Below are positions 7,930-54,347 of a stretch of 64,000 bases of DNA, piece by piece. Position 1 is the stretch's first letter, and every line of letters starts with the position of its first letter. The DNA lies in NCBI GenBank assembly GCA_000004985.1, contig GG738924.1; one strand, 5' to 3'. The position numbers and the translations under genes were made by a program. The notes below the pieces were generated by a model. The model worked only from the letters and a program-made list of their open reading frames with translations, searched no databases and was not told the DNA's origin. The DNA comes from Naegleria gruberi (Eukaryota).

Positions 7930-8139
7930 TTTTTTTCTTGGTTTTGGCGTACTTGAACATTTTTATTTTTGGGTTACAAAATACACTTCGAATTTTCGCT
8001 GGAACTCAAAGAAAATTTGCAGTAATCGGTGGTTTCACACTTTAAAAAAAAACGAGTTCTCATTCCAACAAGTAACACCCACGCAGTTGTTGTAGTTTGG
8101 AAGAGGAACTTTGAGATTTTTGCAAAAAAAAACAAAAGT

Positions 8140-8174
8140 GGAGTCATAGGGAATCGAACCCTAGACCTTCTGCA

Positions 8175-8205
<31 letters not shown>

Positions 8206-8211
8206 AACCCC
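8140..8211 (-). tRNA. tRNA-Ala (anticodon UGC)
   Basis: The reverse complement reads GGGGTTATAGCTCAGTTGGTAGAGCGTCTGCTTTGCATGCAGAAGGTCTAGGGTTCGATTCCCTATGACTCC. It is a cloverleaf with a G3:U70 Ala identity pair, anticodon loop CTTGCAT carrying TGC, T-loop GGTTCGATTCC and A73. A T-run terminator on the minus strand lies just 3' (+ strand 8120-8137). Confidence 0.9.
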
Positions 8212-47019: not shown

Positions 47020-48009
47020 TTAAAGGTTTCGAATAATTCCAAAATACTTTTCCAAAATGTCCCACAACTCTTCCTCACTTTCAATAGTACGCTCTGTCAC
47101 ATTTCCCAACTTTCTAATTGTGAATTTTCTATCAACAATCGAATATCTACCTTCAGAAGTCATTAAGGCAACCAATACTATTTTAGTTTGTCCATGATTT
47201 GGATTCGTAGTTGCATACCAAGCTCCCAATTCAGCATCTAACAATGACATGATATTATCTTCTTCAAAATGCATGATATCCCACCATTCAGACTCTGGTT
47301 TGTTTTTATATTGAAGAAACCATTTCTTTTGGACAAGTTGACCATTTTCTTCATTGACATCTTGATGATTGATATTGGCACCAGTTTTAAATCGGTAGCA
47401 ACCCCACTTGTCATGATTTAATTTCGTACTTGTAAAAATCTTTCCCAAAACCAAACGAAATACCTCGCCAGTATTTTCACTCTTTTCACAACCATTACTT
47501 AAAAGGAGCGGAGATCTTGGTTGACCACCCCATCCCAAACCATTATCAACCAGATATCTATTTCCATCTTGACAATCAACCAAGAGAGCCATGTGTGTAG
47601 TGCAACTCAATGGCAATCCACTGTCCAATTCTGGAGCTACGAAACGATTGAGAAGTTTCACGCCAACTGTCGTGACAGAAAATCCAAATTCACGTAAAGC
47701 TCTGGCCAAGAGTAAGTTTTGTTCAAAGCAAAATCCTCCACGAGATTTCAATACGAGCTTGGTAAAGATATCATTTGGATCGAGGGAAACTTTGATTGAA
47801 TCTGGGAGGGAAGAATCTGAACTAAACATGCGCATCTCTGGATAAAGAGTTGCCAAATTTTCGAATGGAATGTGAATGGCATGATTCCATGAAATGGTGT
47901 GTAATAGAGAATAAGAGTTGCCACATGTGTCAATCAATTGTTTTTCAACATTTTCACGAGAAACTAAACCAATACGGTTGAGATAACTGTCAATATCAAA
48001 TATGTCCAT
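47020..48009 (-). CDS. Arylamine N-acetyltransferase (NAT family)
   Basis: 329-aa ORF with ATG at 48009. Contains the NAT active-site region RGGFCFEQNLLLARALREFGF (catalytic Cys in RGG-x-C-F-E-x-N), the downstream His/Asp region and overall NAT length. Confidence 0.82.
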   Translation of the reverse strand: MDIFDIDSYLNRIGLVSRENVEKQLIDTCGNSYSLLHTISWNHAIHIPFENLATLYPEMRMFSSDSSLPDSIKVSLDPNDIFTKLVLKSRGGFCFEQNLLLARALREFGFSVTTVGVKLLNRFVAPELDSGLPLSCTTHMALLVDCQDGNRYLVDNGLGWGGQPRSPLLLSNGCEKSENTGEVFRLVLGKIFTSTKLNHDKWGCYRFKTGANINHQDVNEENGQLVQKKWFLQYKNKPESEWWDIMHFEEDNIMSLLDAELGAWYATTNPNHGQTKIVLVALMTSEGRYSIVDRKFTIRKLGNVTERTIESEEELWDILEKYFGIIRNL

Positions 48010-48223: not shown

Positions 48224-48311
48224 GGGTGGTTAGCTCAGCGGTAGAGCACCGGATTGCAAAGTTATTTGCAGCAGACATCCGATGGTCAGGTGTTCGATCC
48301 ACGTACCACCC
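48224..48311 (+). tRNA. tRNA-Cys (anticodon GCA) with a ~17-nt intron 3' of position 37
   Basis: GGGTGGTTAGCTCAGCGGTAGAGCACCGGATTGCAAA[gttatttgcagcagaca]TCCGATGGTCAGGTGTTCGATCCACGTACCACCC. The acceptor stem is fully paired, the anticodon loop TTGCAAA has U33 and A37, the T-loop is TTCGATC and the discriminator is U73 (a Cys identity element). The intron contains TTGCAG, which can pair with the anticodon region. A TTTT terminator follows 8 nt downstream. The isotype call depends on the intron placement. Confidence 0.7.
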
Positions 48312-48631
48312 TACCTTTTAATATTATGCAATAGTAAATAATTTATTTATTGTGTTGTCAACGATTCCTTAGTTTCGATCTTTAAATTTGTTGAAAAATA
48401 GAGAGAATTCTATTTTCTTAAATATTGCCTTGAAGAATATTGATTTGACTTGTAATTTGAAATATGAGTTGAAAAGTAAAATAGTAAATTGAAGTATTAG
48501 GGGAAATCAGATTTCTATCCAAATTTGGAACCTTACATCTAACTTTTTGAGTTTGTTCCAAATGAAAAACTATTCGAAATGGTTTAAATTATCACCATCG
48601 TTGAACTATTCCATACAACAAAAACAAAAAA

Positions 48632-49591
48632 ATGAAAGTAAATCTACTCTTTTCAATTGCAATTCTACTCTTACTTGCAATACTCTCAGTTCAAGCAACT
48701 GACAGCTATCAAACCAAACCTCCAGTTGTCGTAGTTGACAAGTATCACAAACCAAGAATTTGTAAGAGAAAATGCTTAAAGCACAAGTGGATTAAGAAGT
48801 GTTTGAAACACAAACTCGTCGGTCAAAAGAAGGTCTGTGATCAATATGCCATTGTCGGTGCTGGCAAATGTCTCAAACATAAGAAATATTCCAAATGTGA
48901 CAAGTATAGCAAGGCAACAAAGAAGTGTGTCTTGCATGCATACAAGATTGTTGGATGTGCCAAGAAGAAGTATTGGAAAGTTTGCGATTCTTATGGAACT
49001 AAGAAGATTTGTATCAAGAAGGGTTTCAAGAAATTCTGTGCCAAGTACAAGATTATCAACAAGTGTGTTAAGAAGGGATATAAGAAGATCTGTAAGAAAT
49101 TCAAGAAGGTTCCAATCAAGAAGTGTGAAAAGAAGAAGGTCTGTGATAAGTACACTGTTGACTCTTATAATAAGAAGGTTGCCAAATGTAGATATGTTAA
49201 AAAGTGCAAGATTGTTTCATGGGCAAAGAAATGTGCCAAGTATAAGAAGGTTAAATATTGTAAGGAGAGAAAATCCATTAAGAAATGTTGTCTCATTAAG
49301 AAGAAATTCTTCTGTGCCAAACATAAGACTATCAAGTTCTGTAAACACAAGAAGACTATTTCTAAATGTGTCAAATATAACAAGAAGAAGTATTGTGCCA
49401 AGTCAATTGTCATTCCACCAAGATGTATCAAGAAGAAGTATTATAAGAAGTGTTTGAAACGTTCAAAGGGAAAGAAGATTTGTAAGAAATTCAAATTAGT
49501 TGGTGGAAAGAAGAAGTGTTGCAAGTCAATCAAGAAGAAGATTTGTATCAAGAGAAAGACATGCAAGAAGCCAATCATCAAAACCTTGTAA
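48632..49591 (+). CDS. Secreted, extremely Lys/Cys-rich repetitive protein (polycationic; repeated KKC-x-K-[HY]-K units)
   Basis: 319-aa ORF with ATG at 48632. It has a signal peptide MKVNLLFSIAILLLLAILSVQA. The mature part is roughly one-third Lys and ~15% Cys, with Cys spaced every ~6-12 residues in a degenerate repeat (CLKHKWIKKCLKHK..CAKKKYWKVC..KKCEKKKVC..). Confidence 0.6.
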   Translation: MKVNLLFSIAILLLLAILSVQATDSYQTKPPVVVVDKYHKPRICKRKCLKHKWIKKCLKHKLVGQKKVCDQYAIVGAGKCLKHKKYSKCDKYSKATKKCVLHAYKIVGCAKKKYWKVCDSYGTKKICIKKGFKKFCAKYKIINKCVKKGYKKICKKFKKVPIKKCEKKKVCDKYTVDSYNKKVAKCRYVKKCKIVSWAKKCAKYKKVKYCKERKSIKKCCLIKKKFFCAKHKTIKFCKHKKTISKCVKYNKKKYCAKSIVIPPRCIKKKYYKKCLKRSKGKKICKKFKLVGGKKKCCKSIKKKICIKRKTCKKPIIKTL

Positions 49592-49870: not shown

Positions 49871-51757
49871 TTAATCTTGTAAGATTTTGTTGGCCTTTCT
49901 CCAATTTTCAACAATGATCCTCACTGATTTGTTACTAGATTTCAATCTTTCGAATAGATCGGTCATGTTATTGAGACATGCAACTCGAACAATGTCAAAT
50001 AATGTACTGGCTATGAGTGAATCATCATTCACACTCAGAATTTCATGTTCAATTCTCAGATAAATTTGGTCAATGTTGGCAATATTCAATTCTAATGGAG
50101 ATCCTTCTTTCAGGTAGGTTTTCAATATTTTCATTGCCACCAGTTTCTTATTCTTTCGTTTGGGGGATTTTCTGAAATTTTCAATATCTCTATATGCTAA
50201 AACATCTTCATTACAATAACTCCTTGTCGCAAAATCCAATAACAATGCAAATGTCTTCCTATTTTTCAAAAATAATTCAAGTTCTGATTGAGCATACTCA
50301 GCTTGATGATTATCATTACGAATGGCATAAATGACAGGAAGAATGACTGAAATAATTATTTCCAATAATGAATAGGTCAGTAGAGTAAATCCAAATGGAA
50401 CGAAATAATCTGTCAAGAATCTGATAATCTCAATTTGTCCACTAATTATATAAGCAAGTGATAAAGCCACTTGAATAAATACCAAAACAAAAGCTTCAGT
50501 CTTAATTGACCAAGTATCTCTATCAACAAAGAAGAGAATGATCAAAAAGCTCACTTCTATCACAATGTAGAGTGCTGCTTCTGCTCCCAGCAATATAACA
50601 GTATTTGAGGTTGTAACACATCCACTATTAAATGCAAATGGACTCACATTCCACAAGAATATTCTCTTTCCACTATTACTATACGAAAGTTCATCAATTC
50701 CTCCCAATAAAGCCCAAATAGATAAGTGAATAATGAATGAAATTGTATAAGTGATTGCAATAAACTTGTAGCTCACCAAATATGAAAATATTTTGAACTT
50801 TTTGTCAGAGAAAATTGCAGAAGTGTTGTCAATGTCAGAAGAAGTGACCCACGTTTTTTGATCTTGTTCATCATGGACATCTTCTCCAGTTTCTGGAGTA
50901 ACCCGTGTTGTTGTAATCTGTTCTGAAGTTTGTGATGCATCGTTTGGATTTTCTTGTGATATATTTGAAATGGTACTCGAGTTATCAAATGTTTTTGGTG
51001 TCAATAATTCTGGTTGACTTGTCTCTGATAATTCCGTAGAAGATCCATGTTGTATAGATGCTAATGGAAGAATGGTAATACCTTTCAATTTGTCATCCTC
51101 TTGAACTTGTTGATCCACATTTTGTTCCTTTTTCACATTGGTCAATTGTTGTGGTTTTTCACTTTTCGTCTGAAACATTTGTGCCTTCTTCTTATTGAGT
51201 AAATACATGAAATAAATCCTCAAACATCGAAATACAGTTGGCAGACACAAACTAGGAATAATGATGAAAAACGAAAAAGTGTACAAGAAACATGGAAATA
51301 TTTTCCTCGAAATTGTAAATCGTAGACATGTAATGACCACAAAAGCCAAACTAGCTGATATTGTCAGTAGCATGTAAACTGGATTCCTAGCTTTGATGTG
51401 TCCACTCTTTCTCTTCCAAATAACTCCAACAGTTCCAAAAAGTGCCAACGTCAAATAGAGTGTCAAGAAGATGGATGCGATGATTGGTGTAAAGATGCTG
51501 TCTGGGCAAATATTATTTACCACTGTTGCATTGTATCCTTCACGACTCAAGTCTCCTAGATTGAACAATCTTTCGTCACATATTGAATAATTTGTTGTTG
51601 AGGTATTGTTGTTGGAAAGTTGTTGTTGTTGAATAGAATAAATTGTTGTTGCTATTGGATAACGATAATGAAAAGATTCTTGAATAAATGATGAAAGAAG
51701 GGTAAATATTCGAAATTGGGTTTCATTATTTTGACCTGCATGATGCAGCTGGTACAT
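49871..51757 (-). CDS. Seven-transmembrane receptor fused to a C-terminal RGS domain (7TM-RGS, AtRGS1-like architecture), copy 1 of a tandem pair
   Basis: 628-aa ORF with ATG at 51757. It has an N-terminal Cys-containing ectodomain (SICDERLFNLGDLSREGYNATVVNNICPDS), seven hydrophobic helices with a long Ser-rich third loop and a C-terminal RGS domain (KNRKTFALLLDFATRSYCNEDVLAYRDIENFRK..ILKTYLKEGSPLELNIANID..LFDIVRVACLNNMTDLFERL). Confidence 0.8.
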   Translation of the reverse strand: MYQLHHAGQNNETQFRIFTLLSSFIQESFHYRYPIATTIYSIQQQQLSNNNTSTTNYSICDERLFNLGDLSREGYNATVVNNICPDSIFTPIIASIFLTLYLTLALFGTVGVIWKRKSGHIKARNPVYMLLTISASLAFVVITCLRFTISRKIFPCFLYTFSFFIIIPSLCLPTVFRCLRIYFMYLLNKKKAQMFQTKSEKPQQLTNVKKEQNVDQQVQEDDKLKGITILPLASIQHGSSTELSETSQPELLTPKTFDNSSTISNISQENPNDASQTSEQITTTRVTPETGEDVHDEQDQKTWVTSSDIDNTSAIFSDKKFKIFSYLVSYKFIAITYTISFIIHLSIWALLGGIDELSYSNSGKRIFLWNVSPFAFNSGCVTTSNTVILLGAEAALYIVIEVSFLIILFFVDRDTWSIKTEAFVLVFIQVALSLAYIISGQIEIIRFLTDYFVPFGFTLLTYSLLEIIISVILPVIYAIRNDNHQAEYAQSELELFLKNRKTFALLLDFATRSYCNEDVLAYRDIENFRKSPKRKNKKLVAMKILKTYLKEGSPLELNIANIDQIYLRIEHEILSVNDDSLIASTLFDIVRVACLNNMTDLFERLKSSNKSVRIIVENWRKANKILQD

Positions 51758-51825: not shown

Positions 51826-53757
51826 CTACAGGTTTAAACTGTTTCTACGAAAGTTAATAACCATTTCTTGTATGTTCTTGTCTGTGGCTTTCAATCTTTC
51901 AAATACATCAACCATGTTATTTAGACAGAGAACTCTAATATCATCAAACAAGGTATTGGGAATCAGAGAAGGGTTTGTTGCTTTTTGGAGAATTGATTCA
52001 ATTTCTTCATACTTTTTGGAAAGGTTTGACATGTTGAGCTCGAGAGAAGATCCACTTTTAAGATAGGTTTTCAATATTTTCGTGGCAACCTTCTTCTTGT
52101 GCTTTTTGGAAATCTTTCTAAACTTTTCAATGTCTCTGAAGGCAAGAACATCTTCAGGGCAGTAGCATCTTCTGGAAAATTCTAAAAGTAAGGCAAATGT
52201 TTTTCTATTTTTGAGAACCGTCTCAATTTCAGTTTGGGAATATCCTCCATTCTCGGTATTTAATTGTTTTTGAAACTTTCTGTCATCAATAATTGCATAA
52301 ATTACAGGTAACAATACAGCAATAAATATTTCAAATACTGAATAGGTCAGTAGAGTAAATCCAAACGGAACGAAATAATCTGTCAAAAATCTAATCACCT
52401 CAATTTGACCACTAACTAAGAATGCAATAGCTGTTATGATTTGAATCACAATTAATACAAAGGTATCTCTTTTGATATGAAAAGCATCTCTATCAGCAAA
52501 GAATAATGGAATAAAGAATGCAATCTCGATAATAATGTAGATGGCTGCCTCTGCTGCCAACATAAAGACAGTGTTAGTGTTAGTAACACAGCCTGTAGTT
52601 GCTGCAAACATGCTGATATTCCACAAGAATACTCTTTTTCCTCCATTACTAACAACAAGTTCATCGGCTCCTCCAAATATTGCCCAAATAATAAGATGCA
52701 AAATGAAGGCAACAATATACGATGAAGCAATGAGTTTGTAACTCACCAAGAAGGAATAAACCTTAAATTTCCTATCATTATAAACTGATTCTGTATAGTC
52801 CACATCAGTTGAGGTAACCCATGAACGGGAATCATCTTCAGTGTCTGAATCTACCTCACTTTTTCGTTGTTCTGATGAAACATGACTTGATGTATTGTTG
52901 TCAGTCAATGGGGTATCGGGAATGTGTGGAATAACAACACCATTATTATTGGTAGTAGTAGTAATTTCTGGAAAGGTGAATTTTTCCACACTAAAAGGTT
53001 CAACTACATCTTGATGTTCTGTTAAAGTGGTGGGAATTAATTCAAAATTGACCACTCTACTTGATGTGAGAGCTTCCCTAGACGTCGATGGACTATTGTC
53101 TTGTTGGTGACTCTGTGAATCTCTTGCTGTTGTGATGTGAGATACCACCAATGAGAGGGAAGAATTATTGTTGAGTGCAGATGATGAAGCTGAATGTTTT
53201 GATGATTCAAAAGTCATTGCTTTTCTTATATTCAACTTGTACATGAAAAAGATACGAATGAATCGGAATACTGCTGGAAGACACATTGCAGGCACTGTGA
53301 TAAAGTATGAAATAGTGTATAAAAAGCAGGGGAATATCTTTCTTCCTATAATAAATCGCAAACAAGTTGTTACGACAAAGTACAAAGTTGCCGAGATGGT
53401 CAAAATCATATGAAGTGGATTACGAGCCTTGATGTGTCCACTGTTTCTCTTCCACAACACTCCAATAATAGCCAAAGTAACCAAACACAAATAAACAAAT
53501 AGAAAAACTGCTGAAACTATTGGAGTGAAGATACTATCTGGACAAATGTTATTGACCATCGTGGCATTATATCCTTCTCGGCTCAGTTCTCCCAATTTAA
53601 AGAGTCTCTCATCACAAATAGATGATGTTGAATTACTATTTGATGAGGTATTTGATGATGCAACCAATAAAGAAGAAATAATTGTTGGCACTTGACTGCT
53701 CACGCTACTGAAGAAATATTGCAATACTTGTTGTAGTGGAATGAGTTGTGCAACCAT
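51826..53757 (-). CDS. Seven-transmembrane receptor fused to a C-terminal RGS domain (7TM-RGS), copy 2 of a tandem pair
   Basis: The track ORF 51826..53820 starts at an alternative TTG. The first ATG is at 53757 (MVAQLIPLQQ..). Domain order and many blocks are shared with the gene at 49871..51757 (SICDERLFKLGELSREGYNATMVNNICPDSIFTP; TM helices; KNRKTFALLLEFSRRCYCPEDVLAFRDIEKFRK). Confidence 0.8.
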   Translation of the reverse strand: MVAQLIPLQQVLQYFFSSVSSQVPTIISSLLVASSNTSSNSNSTSSICDERLFKLGELSREGYNATMVNNICPDSIFTPIVSAVFLFVYLCLVTLAIIGVLWKRNSGHIKARNPLHMILTISATLYFVVTTCLRFIIGRKIFPCFLYTISYFITVPAMCLPAVFRFIRIFFMYKLNIRKAMTFESSKHSASSSALNNNSSLSLVVSHITTARDSQSHQQDNSPSTSREALTSSRVVNFELIPTTLTEHQDVVEPFSVEKFTFPEITTTTNNNGVVIPHIPDTPLTDNNTSSHVSSEQRKSEVDSDTEDDSRSWVTSTDVDYTESVYNDRKFKVYSFLVSYKLIASSYIVAFILHLIIWAIFGGADELVVSNGGKRVFLWNISMFAATTGCVTNTNTVFMLAAEAAIYIIIEIAFFIPLFFADRDAFHIKRDTFVLIVIQIITAIAFLVSGQIEVIRFLTDYFVPFGFTLLTYSVFEIFIAVLLPVIYAIIDDRKFQKQLNTENGGYSQTEIETVLKNRKTFALLLEFSRRCYCPEDVLAFRDIEKFRKISKKHKKKVATKILKTYLKSGSSLELNMSNLSKKYEEIESILQKATNPSLIPNTLFDDIRVLCLNNMVDVFERLKATDKNIQEMVINFRRNSLNL

Positions 53758-54347
53758 TTTCTTTGTTGTGATCTTCAGCAACAGTGTTGACAACTTTGAT
53801 GGGAAAGGAAACTTTTCCAAGCCTCCGAAACAAAACGGGTTGATGTTATGCCTTACATATCATCTCGACTCGATTTTTTGGTTATGAAAATTTTTTGTGA
53901 TGTGTTGATTGGTATTGTATAATCTTTTTTAGGACCAAAGCTGTAATAATAATTTTTAAAAAATATTTGAAAAAGATATTGTTAATAATAATATCGGGTT
54001 GATGTTGTTAGTGTTTGAGTGGGTTAACAAGTTGAAACACCTGAAGGAATTTCAGATCAGCACGATGAGATTATTTAAATAGTAGTGGTTTTTAAATTTT
54101 TATTGTTGGACAAGTGTTCGTTGAGGAATGACCATACTCAATTCATCAATTACACGAATAACAATTTGAATATCGCCAAACAATCACTGTGTTTTACTCT
54201 TTACTTTGTGTGCTCAACAATAAAAAGAGTACTAGCCTTGAAAGCTTGTTTAGATTCTTACTGCCTTGATGTGTAACATGTCAGCCAATCTAAGGAAGTA
54301 AACGAAATATAAAAAAATATGAAACTCGTCATCACCGTTACATCAAC

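Follow-up and report, generated by a model that had tools for sequence, protein, structure and literature searches.

We analyzed a window of 64,000 nucleotides (64 kb), the whole stretch taken from contig GG738924.1 of the Naegleria gruberi genome assembly (GCA_000004985.1), and studied in it one gene for a predicted secreted protein that is very rich in lysine and cysteine (hereafter the Lys/Cys protein) and whose cysteines are spaced in mirror order around a central loop. The window has a GC content of 33.6%, and its open reading frames (ORFs) are long and intron-poor. The Lys/Cys ORF lies on the plus strand at 48632..49591 and runs without interruption from ATG to TAA over 319 codons, as read from the ORF listing and the sequence. 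The parts of the gene, numbered in amino acids (aa) from the first Met, are given below with the evidence for each; the predicted local distance difference test score (pLDDT) and the strands are those of AlphaFold2 (AF2).

48632..49591, plus strand: complete single-exon coding sequence, 319 codons and TAA (ORF listing, sequence, collinear orthologue L001, codon bias)
48632..48697, plus strand: predicted signal peptide, aa 1-22 (MKVNLLFSIAILLLLAILSVQA / TD) (hydropathy profile, -3/-1 rule)
48698..48760, plus strand: low-confidence N-terminal linker, aa 23-43 (TDSYQTKPP...VDKYHKP) (pLDDT <50 at aa 22-43)
48761..49144, plus strand: N-arm of the predicted ladder, aa 44-171, 15 Cys (AF2 strands, Cys mirror)
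49145..49186, plus strand: tip loop, aa 172-185 (DKYTVDSYNKKVAK) (low pLDDT, mirror center, insertion site)
49187..49564, plus strand: C-arm of the predicted ladder, aa 186-311, 17 Cys (AF2 strands, Cys mirror)
49565..49588, plus strand: short basic C-terminal tail, aa 312-319 (KKPIIKTL) (sequence; pLDDT <50 at aa 314-319)

Lysine makes up 106 of the 319 residues (33%) and 105 of the 297 residues of the predicted mature chain (35%), which also contains 32 Cys (10%), 19 Tyr and only 9 acidic residues. The protein has a net charge of ∼+104 and a mass of ∼35 kDa. Aromatic residues number 30 (∼10%), CC doublets occur twice and the CxC motif is absent; β-forming residues outnumber helix-forming residues by 83 to 25 in the mature chain. 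The protein sequence has no transmembrane segment, glycosylphosphatidylinositol (GPI)-type tail or N-glycosylation sequon. The first-pass annotation of this DNA had described a secreted chain of ∼300 residues, about one-third of them lysine, and this agrees with the predicted signal peptide and the composition of the mature chain; its figure of ∼45 cysteines was too high.

An orthologue was found in L001, a 1,343-bp assembled contig (Logan, SRR32051688) that is collinear with the window ORF from Met to stop. The two proteins share 77% amino-acid identity and 30 of the 32 Cys are kept, and the ratio of nonsynonymous to synonymous substitution rates (dN/dS) is 0.13 at a dS of ∼1.1 (Nei-Gojobori). 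In the Lys/Cys gene the share of lysine codons that are AAG (0.74) and the GC content of third codon positions (GC3, 0.47) are the highest among the 24 ORFs of the window, a codon bias that fits high expression or translational selection and/or the avoidance of poly(A) tracts. We concluded that the Lys/Cys ORF is a real gene under purifying selection. No paralogue was detected when a second copy was looked for within the window. L001 carries one in-frame TGA (L001 631-633) where the window has Gly108 (GGA), with the remaining ORF intact and the frame unchanged. This TGA may be a sequencing or assembly error, because it is the single one in an otherwise intact short-read contig, or it may be a strain-specific nonsense allele.

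The N-terminus starts with M-K, continues with a hydrophobic core of 16 residues and ends in SVQA/TD, where position -3 is V and position -1 is A; AF2 models the region as a helix (aa 2-18). A signal-peptide-like N-terminus is present in every full-length member of the protein family described below, orthologues included. The cleavable signal peptide that had been proposed for this ORF is consistent with these data, and the Lys/Cys protein is probably secreted with its signal peptide removed. Inspection of the C-terminal tail (aa 312-319) gave neither a GPI-type or transmembrane segment nor a KDEL-type motif.

The cysteines are spaced at a nearly constant distance: 14 of the 31 Cys-Cys gaps are 9 residues long, 24 of 31 fall between 8 and 12, and the mean is 8.6. 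A period of 11-13 residues had been reported before, which does not hold, as the modal spacing is 9 residues. We shuffled the core of the protein 100,000 times with its composition preserved, and no shuffle had as many 9-residue gaps, as many 8-12-residue gaps or as low a standard deviation of the gaps as the real sequence. The 9-mer unit can be written as C-phi-K-x-K-x-phi-K-x-C, and the hydrophobic residues are grouped beside each Cys rather than along one face. A DNA tandem-repeat finder detected no tandem repeat in the gene, and the protein repeats are therefore old and degenerate.

The mirror order of the cysteine gaps is the main structural finding of this work. Counted from the tip loop outward, the gaps between the N-arm cysteines (positions 44, 48, 57, 69, 80, 89, 99, 109, 118, 127, 136, 145, 154, 165, and 171) are 6, 11, 9, 9, 9, 9, 9, 10, 10, 9, 11, 12, 9, and 4, and those of the C-arm, which contains the CC doublets 219/220 and 296/297, are 6, 9, 9, 9, 9, 9, 9, 9, 10, 9, 10, 12, 9, and 6. 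Matching the reversed N-half cysteines to the C-half cysteines by dynamic programming paired 14 Cys with 14 Cys, with the sum of the two positions (i+j) staying within 353-357. The inner pairs are 171-186, 165-192, 154-201, 145-210, 136-219, 127-228, and 118-237, and the outer pairs are 109-246, 99-255, 89-265, 80-274, 69-284, 57-296, and 48-305, so that the center of the symmetry is the tip loop (aa 172-185). The mirror match of the two halves scored 32, compared to 19.5 for the direct order; for shuffled gap orders the mirror score was 15.8 ± 2.7 and never exceeded 28, and none of the 2000 shuffles reached 32.

Relatives of the Lys/Cys protein were sought with phmmer in an exhaustive run against 1.84 billion representatives, which gave 18 hits, and a profile search added more. 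Together these amount to ∼25 relatives, all of them uncharacterized and labeled 'hypothetical', with phmmer E-values from 1e-83 to 1e-13 for P0001-P0011 and profile E-values from 1e-73 to 1e-97 for a group of long forms. N. gruberi has at least six family paralogues, namely NAEGRDRAFT_67458 (50% identity), 66117, 57793, 71888, and 74241, plus 76199; N. fowleri contributes FDP41_004030 and FDP41_002578, N. lovaniensis contributes C9374_009239, and further members come from soil/water metagenome and SRA contigs. A single-protein metagenome locus scan with the Lys/Cys protein gave no relative. In Pfam no family was found at E<=10 for the Lys/Cys protein or any of 13 members scanned, and a PDB sequence search with the family profile had no match and gave nothing meaningful for the N-terminal domain of the long forms. 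The scans place the protein outside any annotated family, and the earlier statement that there is no clear homologue holds for annotated families and fails for the uncharacterized relatives. By its full-length sequence similarity, signal peptide, Cys scaffold, and landmark motifs, the Lys/Cys protein belongs to an unnamed, Naegleria-specific family.

All full-length members keep 28 of the 32 Cys columns; on the N-arm the exceptions are C44 and C165, each of which is lost in some members. C220 is confined to the window protein and its close orthologues P0001 and L001; C297 occurs in no other aligned member. The consensus also contains the landmarks GKC, VGxGxC, P[RK]C, and SxGxxxCxKxxxxGGKxxC, and the Cys, Gly, and Pro positions hold across relatives with only ∼25-35% identity. 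Net charge varies from +30 to +104 in the family, with the window protein as the most extreme member. We concluded that the conserved core of the family is the Cys scaffold, not the charge. The long-form paralogues are ∼700 aa in length and join the ladder scaffold to an additional Cys-rich N-terminal domain of ∼375 aa.

The mirror symmetry was detected in 10 of 10 full-length relatives (z = 3.9-6.0), and the irregular gaps (6, 10, and 12) fall at mirrored positions in all relatives. In P0007 and P0023 the i+j sums vary within 2 across 14 pairs. Insertions of ∼40-100 residues are located at the tip in paralogues; in P0008/P0022 and the long forms they contribute 3-4 further mirrored Cys pairs, and those of P0008/P0022 are themselves mirror-symmetric in Cys spacing. 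Two cases of joint loss fit the pairing: P0007/P0023 have replaced both C165 and C192, which lie ∼27 positions apart, and P0003 has replaced both C44 and C311, which lie 267 positions apart. Since duplication cannot produce a mirror symmetry in sequence, the pattern would reflect a structural constraint, with the two halves of the protein lying antiparallel and their cysteines face to face.

D-x-Y motifs are found in the window protein at aa 24-26 and 36-38 of the linker (D-S-Y and D-K-Y) and at aa 172-174 and 177-179 of the tip loop, and short-form relatives carry D-x-Y(-x-P) motifs in their tip loops and at their termini. The motif may serve for cross-linking or modification. In the short-form relatives P0007 (aa 344-379), P0023 (aa 362-396), P0017, and P0016, the C-terminal tails are built from (K)(V/I)D(S/T)YKP(P) repeats in tandem, with four KVDTYKPP repeats at the C-terminus of P0023.

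One candidate relative, P0012 (539 aa), was rejected. It contains ∼25 CDRHKLIGAGH 11-mers in tandem and, after them, a C-terminal region free of repeats, matches the query segment CDQYAIVGAGKC at E = 6e-10, and looks like an unrelated 11-mer repeat.

None of the protein collections searched contains the 319-aa protein in full length, and looking up contigs by the exact sequences of the window protein, P0001, and P0002 returned no record. Its C-terminal 132 residues (window 49193-49588) are ∼97% identical to part of NAEGRDRAFT_76199 (P0002, XP_002668872), a gene model on a 39.8-kb scaffold in which a SAM+PB1 N-terminus precedes the second half of the Lys/Cys protein. The SAM/PB1 part is encoded nowhere in the 64-kb window. 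As this part is missing from the window and the N-terminus of NAEGRDRAFT_76199 is unrelated to the Lys/Cys protein, the reference model is a chimera that hides the full-length gene. A practical outcome of this work is the exposure of this chimeric model.

We predicted the structure by AF2 with a 13-sequence family alignment, which gave a mean pLDDT of 80 with 141 residues above 90. Strands were predicted at aa 48-63, 66-75, 80-92, and 96-171 on the N-side and at aa 186-261, 265-277, 281-290, and 293-308 on the C-side, which covers nearly all of the mature chain, and the breaks between them fall at mirrored places (64-65/291-292, 76-79/278-280, and 93-95/262-264). The tip loop is the sole internal non-strand stretch of low pLDDT (aa 175-181 <50). 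In this model, one loop is flanked on either side by a 76-residue strand without a break, and these strands together with the mirrored breaks describe a single giant two-stranded hairpin, which is the topology implied by the Cys symmetry. Foldseek returned only weak matches, which are the very long β-hairpins of pore-forming toxins, and in the comparison with PDB chains the AF2 model was not found to share any solved fold. An α-helical hairpin was considered as well and was rejected: the composition is rich in β-formers, and the spacing is unsuited because 9 residues correspond to 2.5 helical turns and would put successive cysteines on opposite sides of the helix.

Next, we compared the Lys/Cys protein to known Cys-rich and basic proteins. 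In its proposed mechanism it comes nearest to cystine-ladder hairpin peptides, to the disulfide-pinned hairpin stack of granulin, to Cys-periodic wall proteins of protists, and to basic adhesive or silk proteins cross-linked through Cys or Tyr. A topology like the predicted one is seen in the cystine-ladder hairpin peptides (protegrins, tachyplesins, polyphemusins, arenicins, and theta-defensins), which are secretory and cationic and consist of two antiparallel strands with cross-strand disulfides. These peptides have 16-25 residues and 1-3 rungs at an even spacing (2 or 4), whereas the Lys/Cys protein has a 297-aa mature chain, 32 Cys, ∼125 residues in each arm, and 14-15 predicted rungs at a spacing of 9, and shows no sequence relationship to them; it thus falls well outside a class of mature peptides of <30 aa with 1-3 evenly spaced cross-strand disulfides. 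Granulins/epithelins are likewise secreted, with β-hairpins pinned by an axial disulfide ladder and with CC doublets, but the granulin module has ∼55 residues and 12 Cys, with stacked short hairpins in direct tandem; in the Lys/Cys protein a single mirror-symmetric ladder would span the whole protein, which is far more basic and has no Pfam granulin match at E<=10. SCREPs (PMC6262176) also begin with a signal peptide followed by repeated Cys-containing units. They are direct tandem copies of independently folding knottin/defensin-type domains, whereas the Lys/Cys protein fits the direct order less well than the mirror order (19.5 vs. 32) and has one Cys per unit. A 6-12-Cys domain signature in direct tandem, of the defensin, knottin, granulin, or SCREP type, was found neither in Pfam for the 13 members (E<=10) nor in PDB.

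Among wall components, microsporidian polar-tube protein PTP2 is basic and Lys-rich. Protist wall proteins as a group (here Cryptosporidium COWPs, Entamoeba Jacob/Jessie lectins, Giardia CWPs, the Acanthamoeba lectins Luke/Leo/Jonah (PMC6541295), and PTP2) are secreted, Cys-periodic, disulfide-cross-linked structural proteins outside the cell in resistant stages, and in these respects they resemble the proposed form of the Lys/Cys protein. They differ in having recognizable lectin, LRR, or CBM domains or other Cys patterns, and none is ∼33% Lys or mirror-laddered; Pfam scans of the Lys/Cys protein and the 13 members gave no wall-family domain (chitin/cellulose-binding lectin, LRR, COWP repeats, or PTP2 profile). 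A looser analogy is to mussel foot protein-1 (decapeptide AKPSYPPTYK), sandcastle-worm cement, and Chironomus Balbiani-ring/sp185 proteins, which are secreted, very basic, rich in Lys/Tyr/Pro, and cross-linked through Cys or Tyr. The tails of relatives (KVDTYKPPKKVDTYKPP in P0023 and IDSYKP in P0007) resemble the mussel decapeptide, but the window protein has only single D-S-Y and D-K-Y motifs and no homology to the adhesive proteins. Two intracellular classes were rejected. Metallothioneins share the richness in Lys and Cys but have >=20-30% Cys in CxC/CC clusters and no aromatic residues; the Lys/Cys protein has a signal peptide, 10% Cys at 9-residue spacing, two CC doublets, no CxC, and 30 aromatic residues. 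Protamines and histone H1 are rich in basic residues like the Lys/Cys protein but are nuclear and lack a signal peptide, and they were rejected on the signal peptide and Cys scaffold of the Lys/Cys protein, with no Pfam match. We concluded that the Lys/Cys protein belongs to none of the compared families, because it lacks their defining sizes, Cys signatures, or domains.

On these data we tentatively favor, as plausible if less than probable, a secreted, rigid, polycationic rod laddered by disulfides that would bind and bridge polyanionic extracellular material, most likely in the cyst wall or surface coat; of the readings offered by the first-pass annotation, that of a disulfide-crosslinked wall or matrix protein is thus the one we prefer. 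Removal of the signal peptide would leave the 297-residue chain, which would fold back at the loop of aa 172-185 into two antiparallel β-arms of ∼125 residues each. The arms would be zipped by ∼14-15 predicted cross-arm disulfide rungs, one per ∼9 residues, for which the mirrored Cys spacing provides support. This would yield a stiff rod with ∼105 Lys and a net charge of ∼+100, which could reach a length of ∼40 nm at full extension and act as an extracellular strut or glue through electrostatic binding and bridging of polyanionic polymers or surfaces. The lineage-specific extra cysteines (C220 and C297) and the exposed D-x-Y motifs at the termini and the tip are candidate sites for covalent cross-links between rods. 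The data themselves show a real gene under selection, its composition, the periodic and mirrored Cys spacing, and the family, whereas secretion, the disulfide pairing, the shape of the rod, and all of its function are inferred. A structural role is favored by the conserved scaffold with its varying charge, by purifying selection, by the fusion of the ladder to a Cys-rich domain, and by the lack of an amphipathic face. For the family as a whole, a new architecture in the form of a giant cystine ladder is a real though rather doubtful possibility: two antiparallel β-arms of ∼125-170 residues with 14-18 disulfide rungs would form a rigid, hyper-cationic nanorod of ∼30-40 nm, its length tuned by mirror-symmetric tip insertions, and would serve as an extracellular building block or weapon of Naegleria, including N. 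fowleri.

The main rival to a wall or matrix function is an antimicrobial or prey-binding one, which we consider unlikely. The laddered rod would then be sent to phagosomes or onto bacteria, where its charge of ∼+100 would bind lipopolysaccharide, teichoic acids, and anionic membranes and so agglutinate or permeabilize, in the manner of a giant protegrin/tachyplesin-type hairpin. Naegleria is a bacterivore, and the signal peptide, the extreme cationic charge, and the predicted disulfide-stapled antiparallel β-hairpin would all suit such an agent, as would the differences in copy number and charge among species and paralogues, which are common in immune and effector families. However, the protein is ∼15-20x longer than known hairpin antimicrobial peptides and, with its hydrophobic residues beside each Cys, has no amphipathic face; the dN/dS of 0.13 and the rigidly conserved scaffold do not point to diversifying evolution, and the less basic long-form paralogues, in which the ladder is joined to a Cys-rich domain, look structural or adhesive. 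A largely disordered polycation is improbable in our estimate. It would condense nucleic acid, polyphosphate, or acidic glycans in secretory granules or outside the cell, as a coacervate or cement with mainly intermolecular Cys cross-links, and it would account for the 33% Lys and net charge of +104, for the low confidence of a shallow AF2 run, for the unpaired-looking extra cysteines (C220 and C297) that vary among orthologues, and for the K/Y/P-rich 'DTYKPP' tail repeats of relatives, which resemble adhesive-protein motifs. Against it stand the 28 of 32 Cys columns and the Gly/Pro landmarks that are fixed in relatives of ∼25-35% identity, and the β-former-rich composition; the mirror symmetry and the low dN/dS indicate a defined fold.

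The first-pass annotation had likened the protein to a defensin-like array, and we examined this in the form of a tandem array of small SCREP-like loops, each Cys bonded to its sequence neighbor, or a polyprotein cut into cationic peptides. The regular C-x8-C unit of ∼9 residues repeated ∼30 times, the even number of Cys (32), and the lack of a confident global fold in the shallow AF2 run speak for such an array. We nevertheless rate it as quite improbable: the mirror score of 32 against 19.5 for direct order, with 0 of 2000 shuffles as high, concerns an order that independent units would not need; the irregular gaps (6, 10, and 12) are mirrored in all relatives, and cysteines ∼27 and 267 positions apart are lost together. 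AF2 with the family alignment predicts one long hairpin, not beads; there is no DNA tandem repeat and no defensin, toxin, or granulin Pfam match at E<=10, and no distinct processing sites can be discerned because Lys is everywhere. As to the reading that the ORF is a pseudogene or arose by chance in A-rich DNA of low complexity, the reference annotation indeed holds only the chimera NAEGRDRAFT_76199 and L001 has its in-frame TGA, but full-length in-frame conservation at a dS of ∼1.1 with a dN/dS of 0.13, strong codon bias, and the paralogues and orthologues in three Naegleria species effectively refute this explanation.

Several observations weigh against the disulfide-laddered wall rod that we favor. 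The AF2 result is unstable across alignments and models: a run with two sequences gave a mean pLDDT of 40 and short helices at aa 268-302 with a pLDDT of ∼81, and the five models of the 13-sequence run span pLDDT values from 53 to 80, with a predicted template modeling score (pTM) of 0.30. Known cross-strand disulfides favor non-hydrogen-bonded sites, and rungs at an odd spacing of 9 residues would alternate between hydrogen-bonded and non-hydrogen-bonded sites in a regular antiparallel ladder; the true geometry may therefore differ from the predicted one. No signal of cross-strand charge or hydrophobic complementarity was detected at the predicted vs. shifted registers. An extended antiparallel homodimer fits the mirror symmetry as well as a monomeric hairpin does, and C44 and C297 are missing from L001 but C311 is retained, at odds with simple pairing of C44 and C311. 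Nothing ties the Lys/Cys protein specifically to the cyst wall. Searches of literature and supplements gave no expression, localization, proteomic, or biochemical data on any family member; the literature on the Naegleria cyst wall, encystation, and proteomics yielded no cyst-wall proteome or usable expression table, no paper was found for the family locus tags or accessions, and the family identifiers are absent from the supplements of PMC9959186, PMC10802493, PMC9035749, PMC11682717, and PMC9928731.

If the mirrored ladder is true, it would represent a new class of fold, with a protegrin-type hairpin enlarged ∼15-fold. It would also offer structural biology and protein engineering a natural protein nanorod that is hyper-stable and carries a high charge. 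To our knowledge, essentially nothing is known about the molecular make-up of Naegleria cyst walls and surface coats. The brain-eating amoeba N. fowleri has family members (FDP41_004030 and FDP41_002578) that are predicted to be secreted and Naegleria-specific. If they are surface or wall components, the family could partly explain cyst resistance or provide diagnostic antigens.

The Lys/Cys gene is flanked upstream by an arylamine N-acetyltransferase homologue (47020-48009, minus strand; PF00797, E = 2e-37), which is divergent from the tRNA-Cys and Lys/Cys genes. The intron-containing tRNA-Cys(GCA) gene at 48224-48312 on the plus strand (Rfam RF00005, 46.9 bits; anticodon loop U-U-G-C-A) carries ∼19 additional nt on the 3' side of the anticodon; a TTTT run follows the gene, which ARAGORN missed. 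It lies only ∼320 bp upstream of the 32-Cys ORF, a nearness that is probably a coincidence. Directly downstream are two tandem paralogous genes on the minus strand (49871-51757 and 51826-53820), whose products are large and hydrophobic, apparently cross the membrane several times, and have an RGS domain at the C-terminus (PF00615, E ∼1e-5 each). A tRNA-Ala(TGC) gene was found elsewhere in the window at 8138-8211 on the minus strand.

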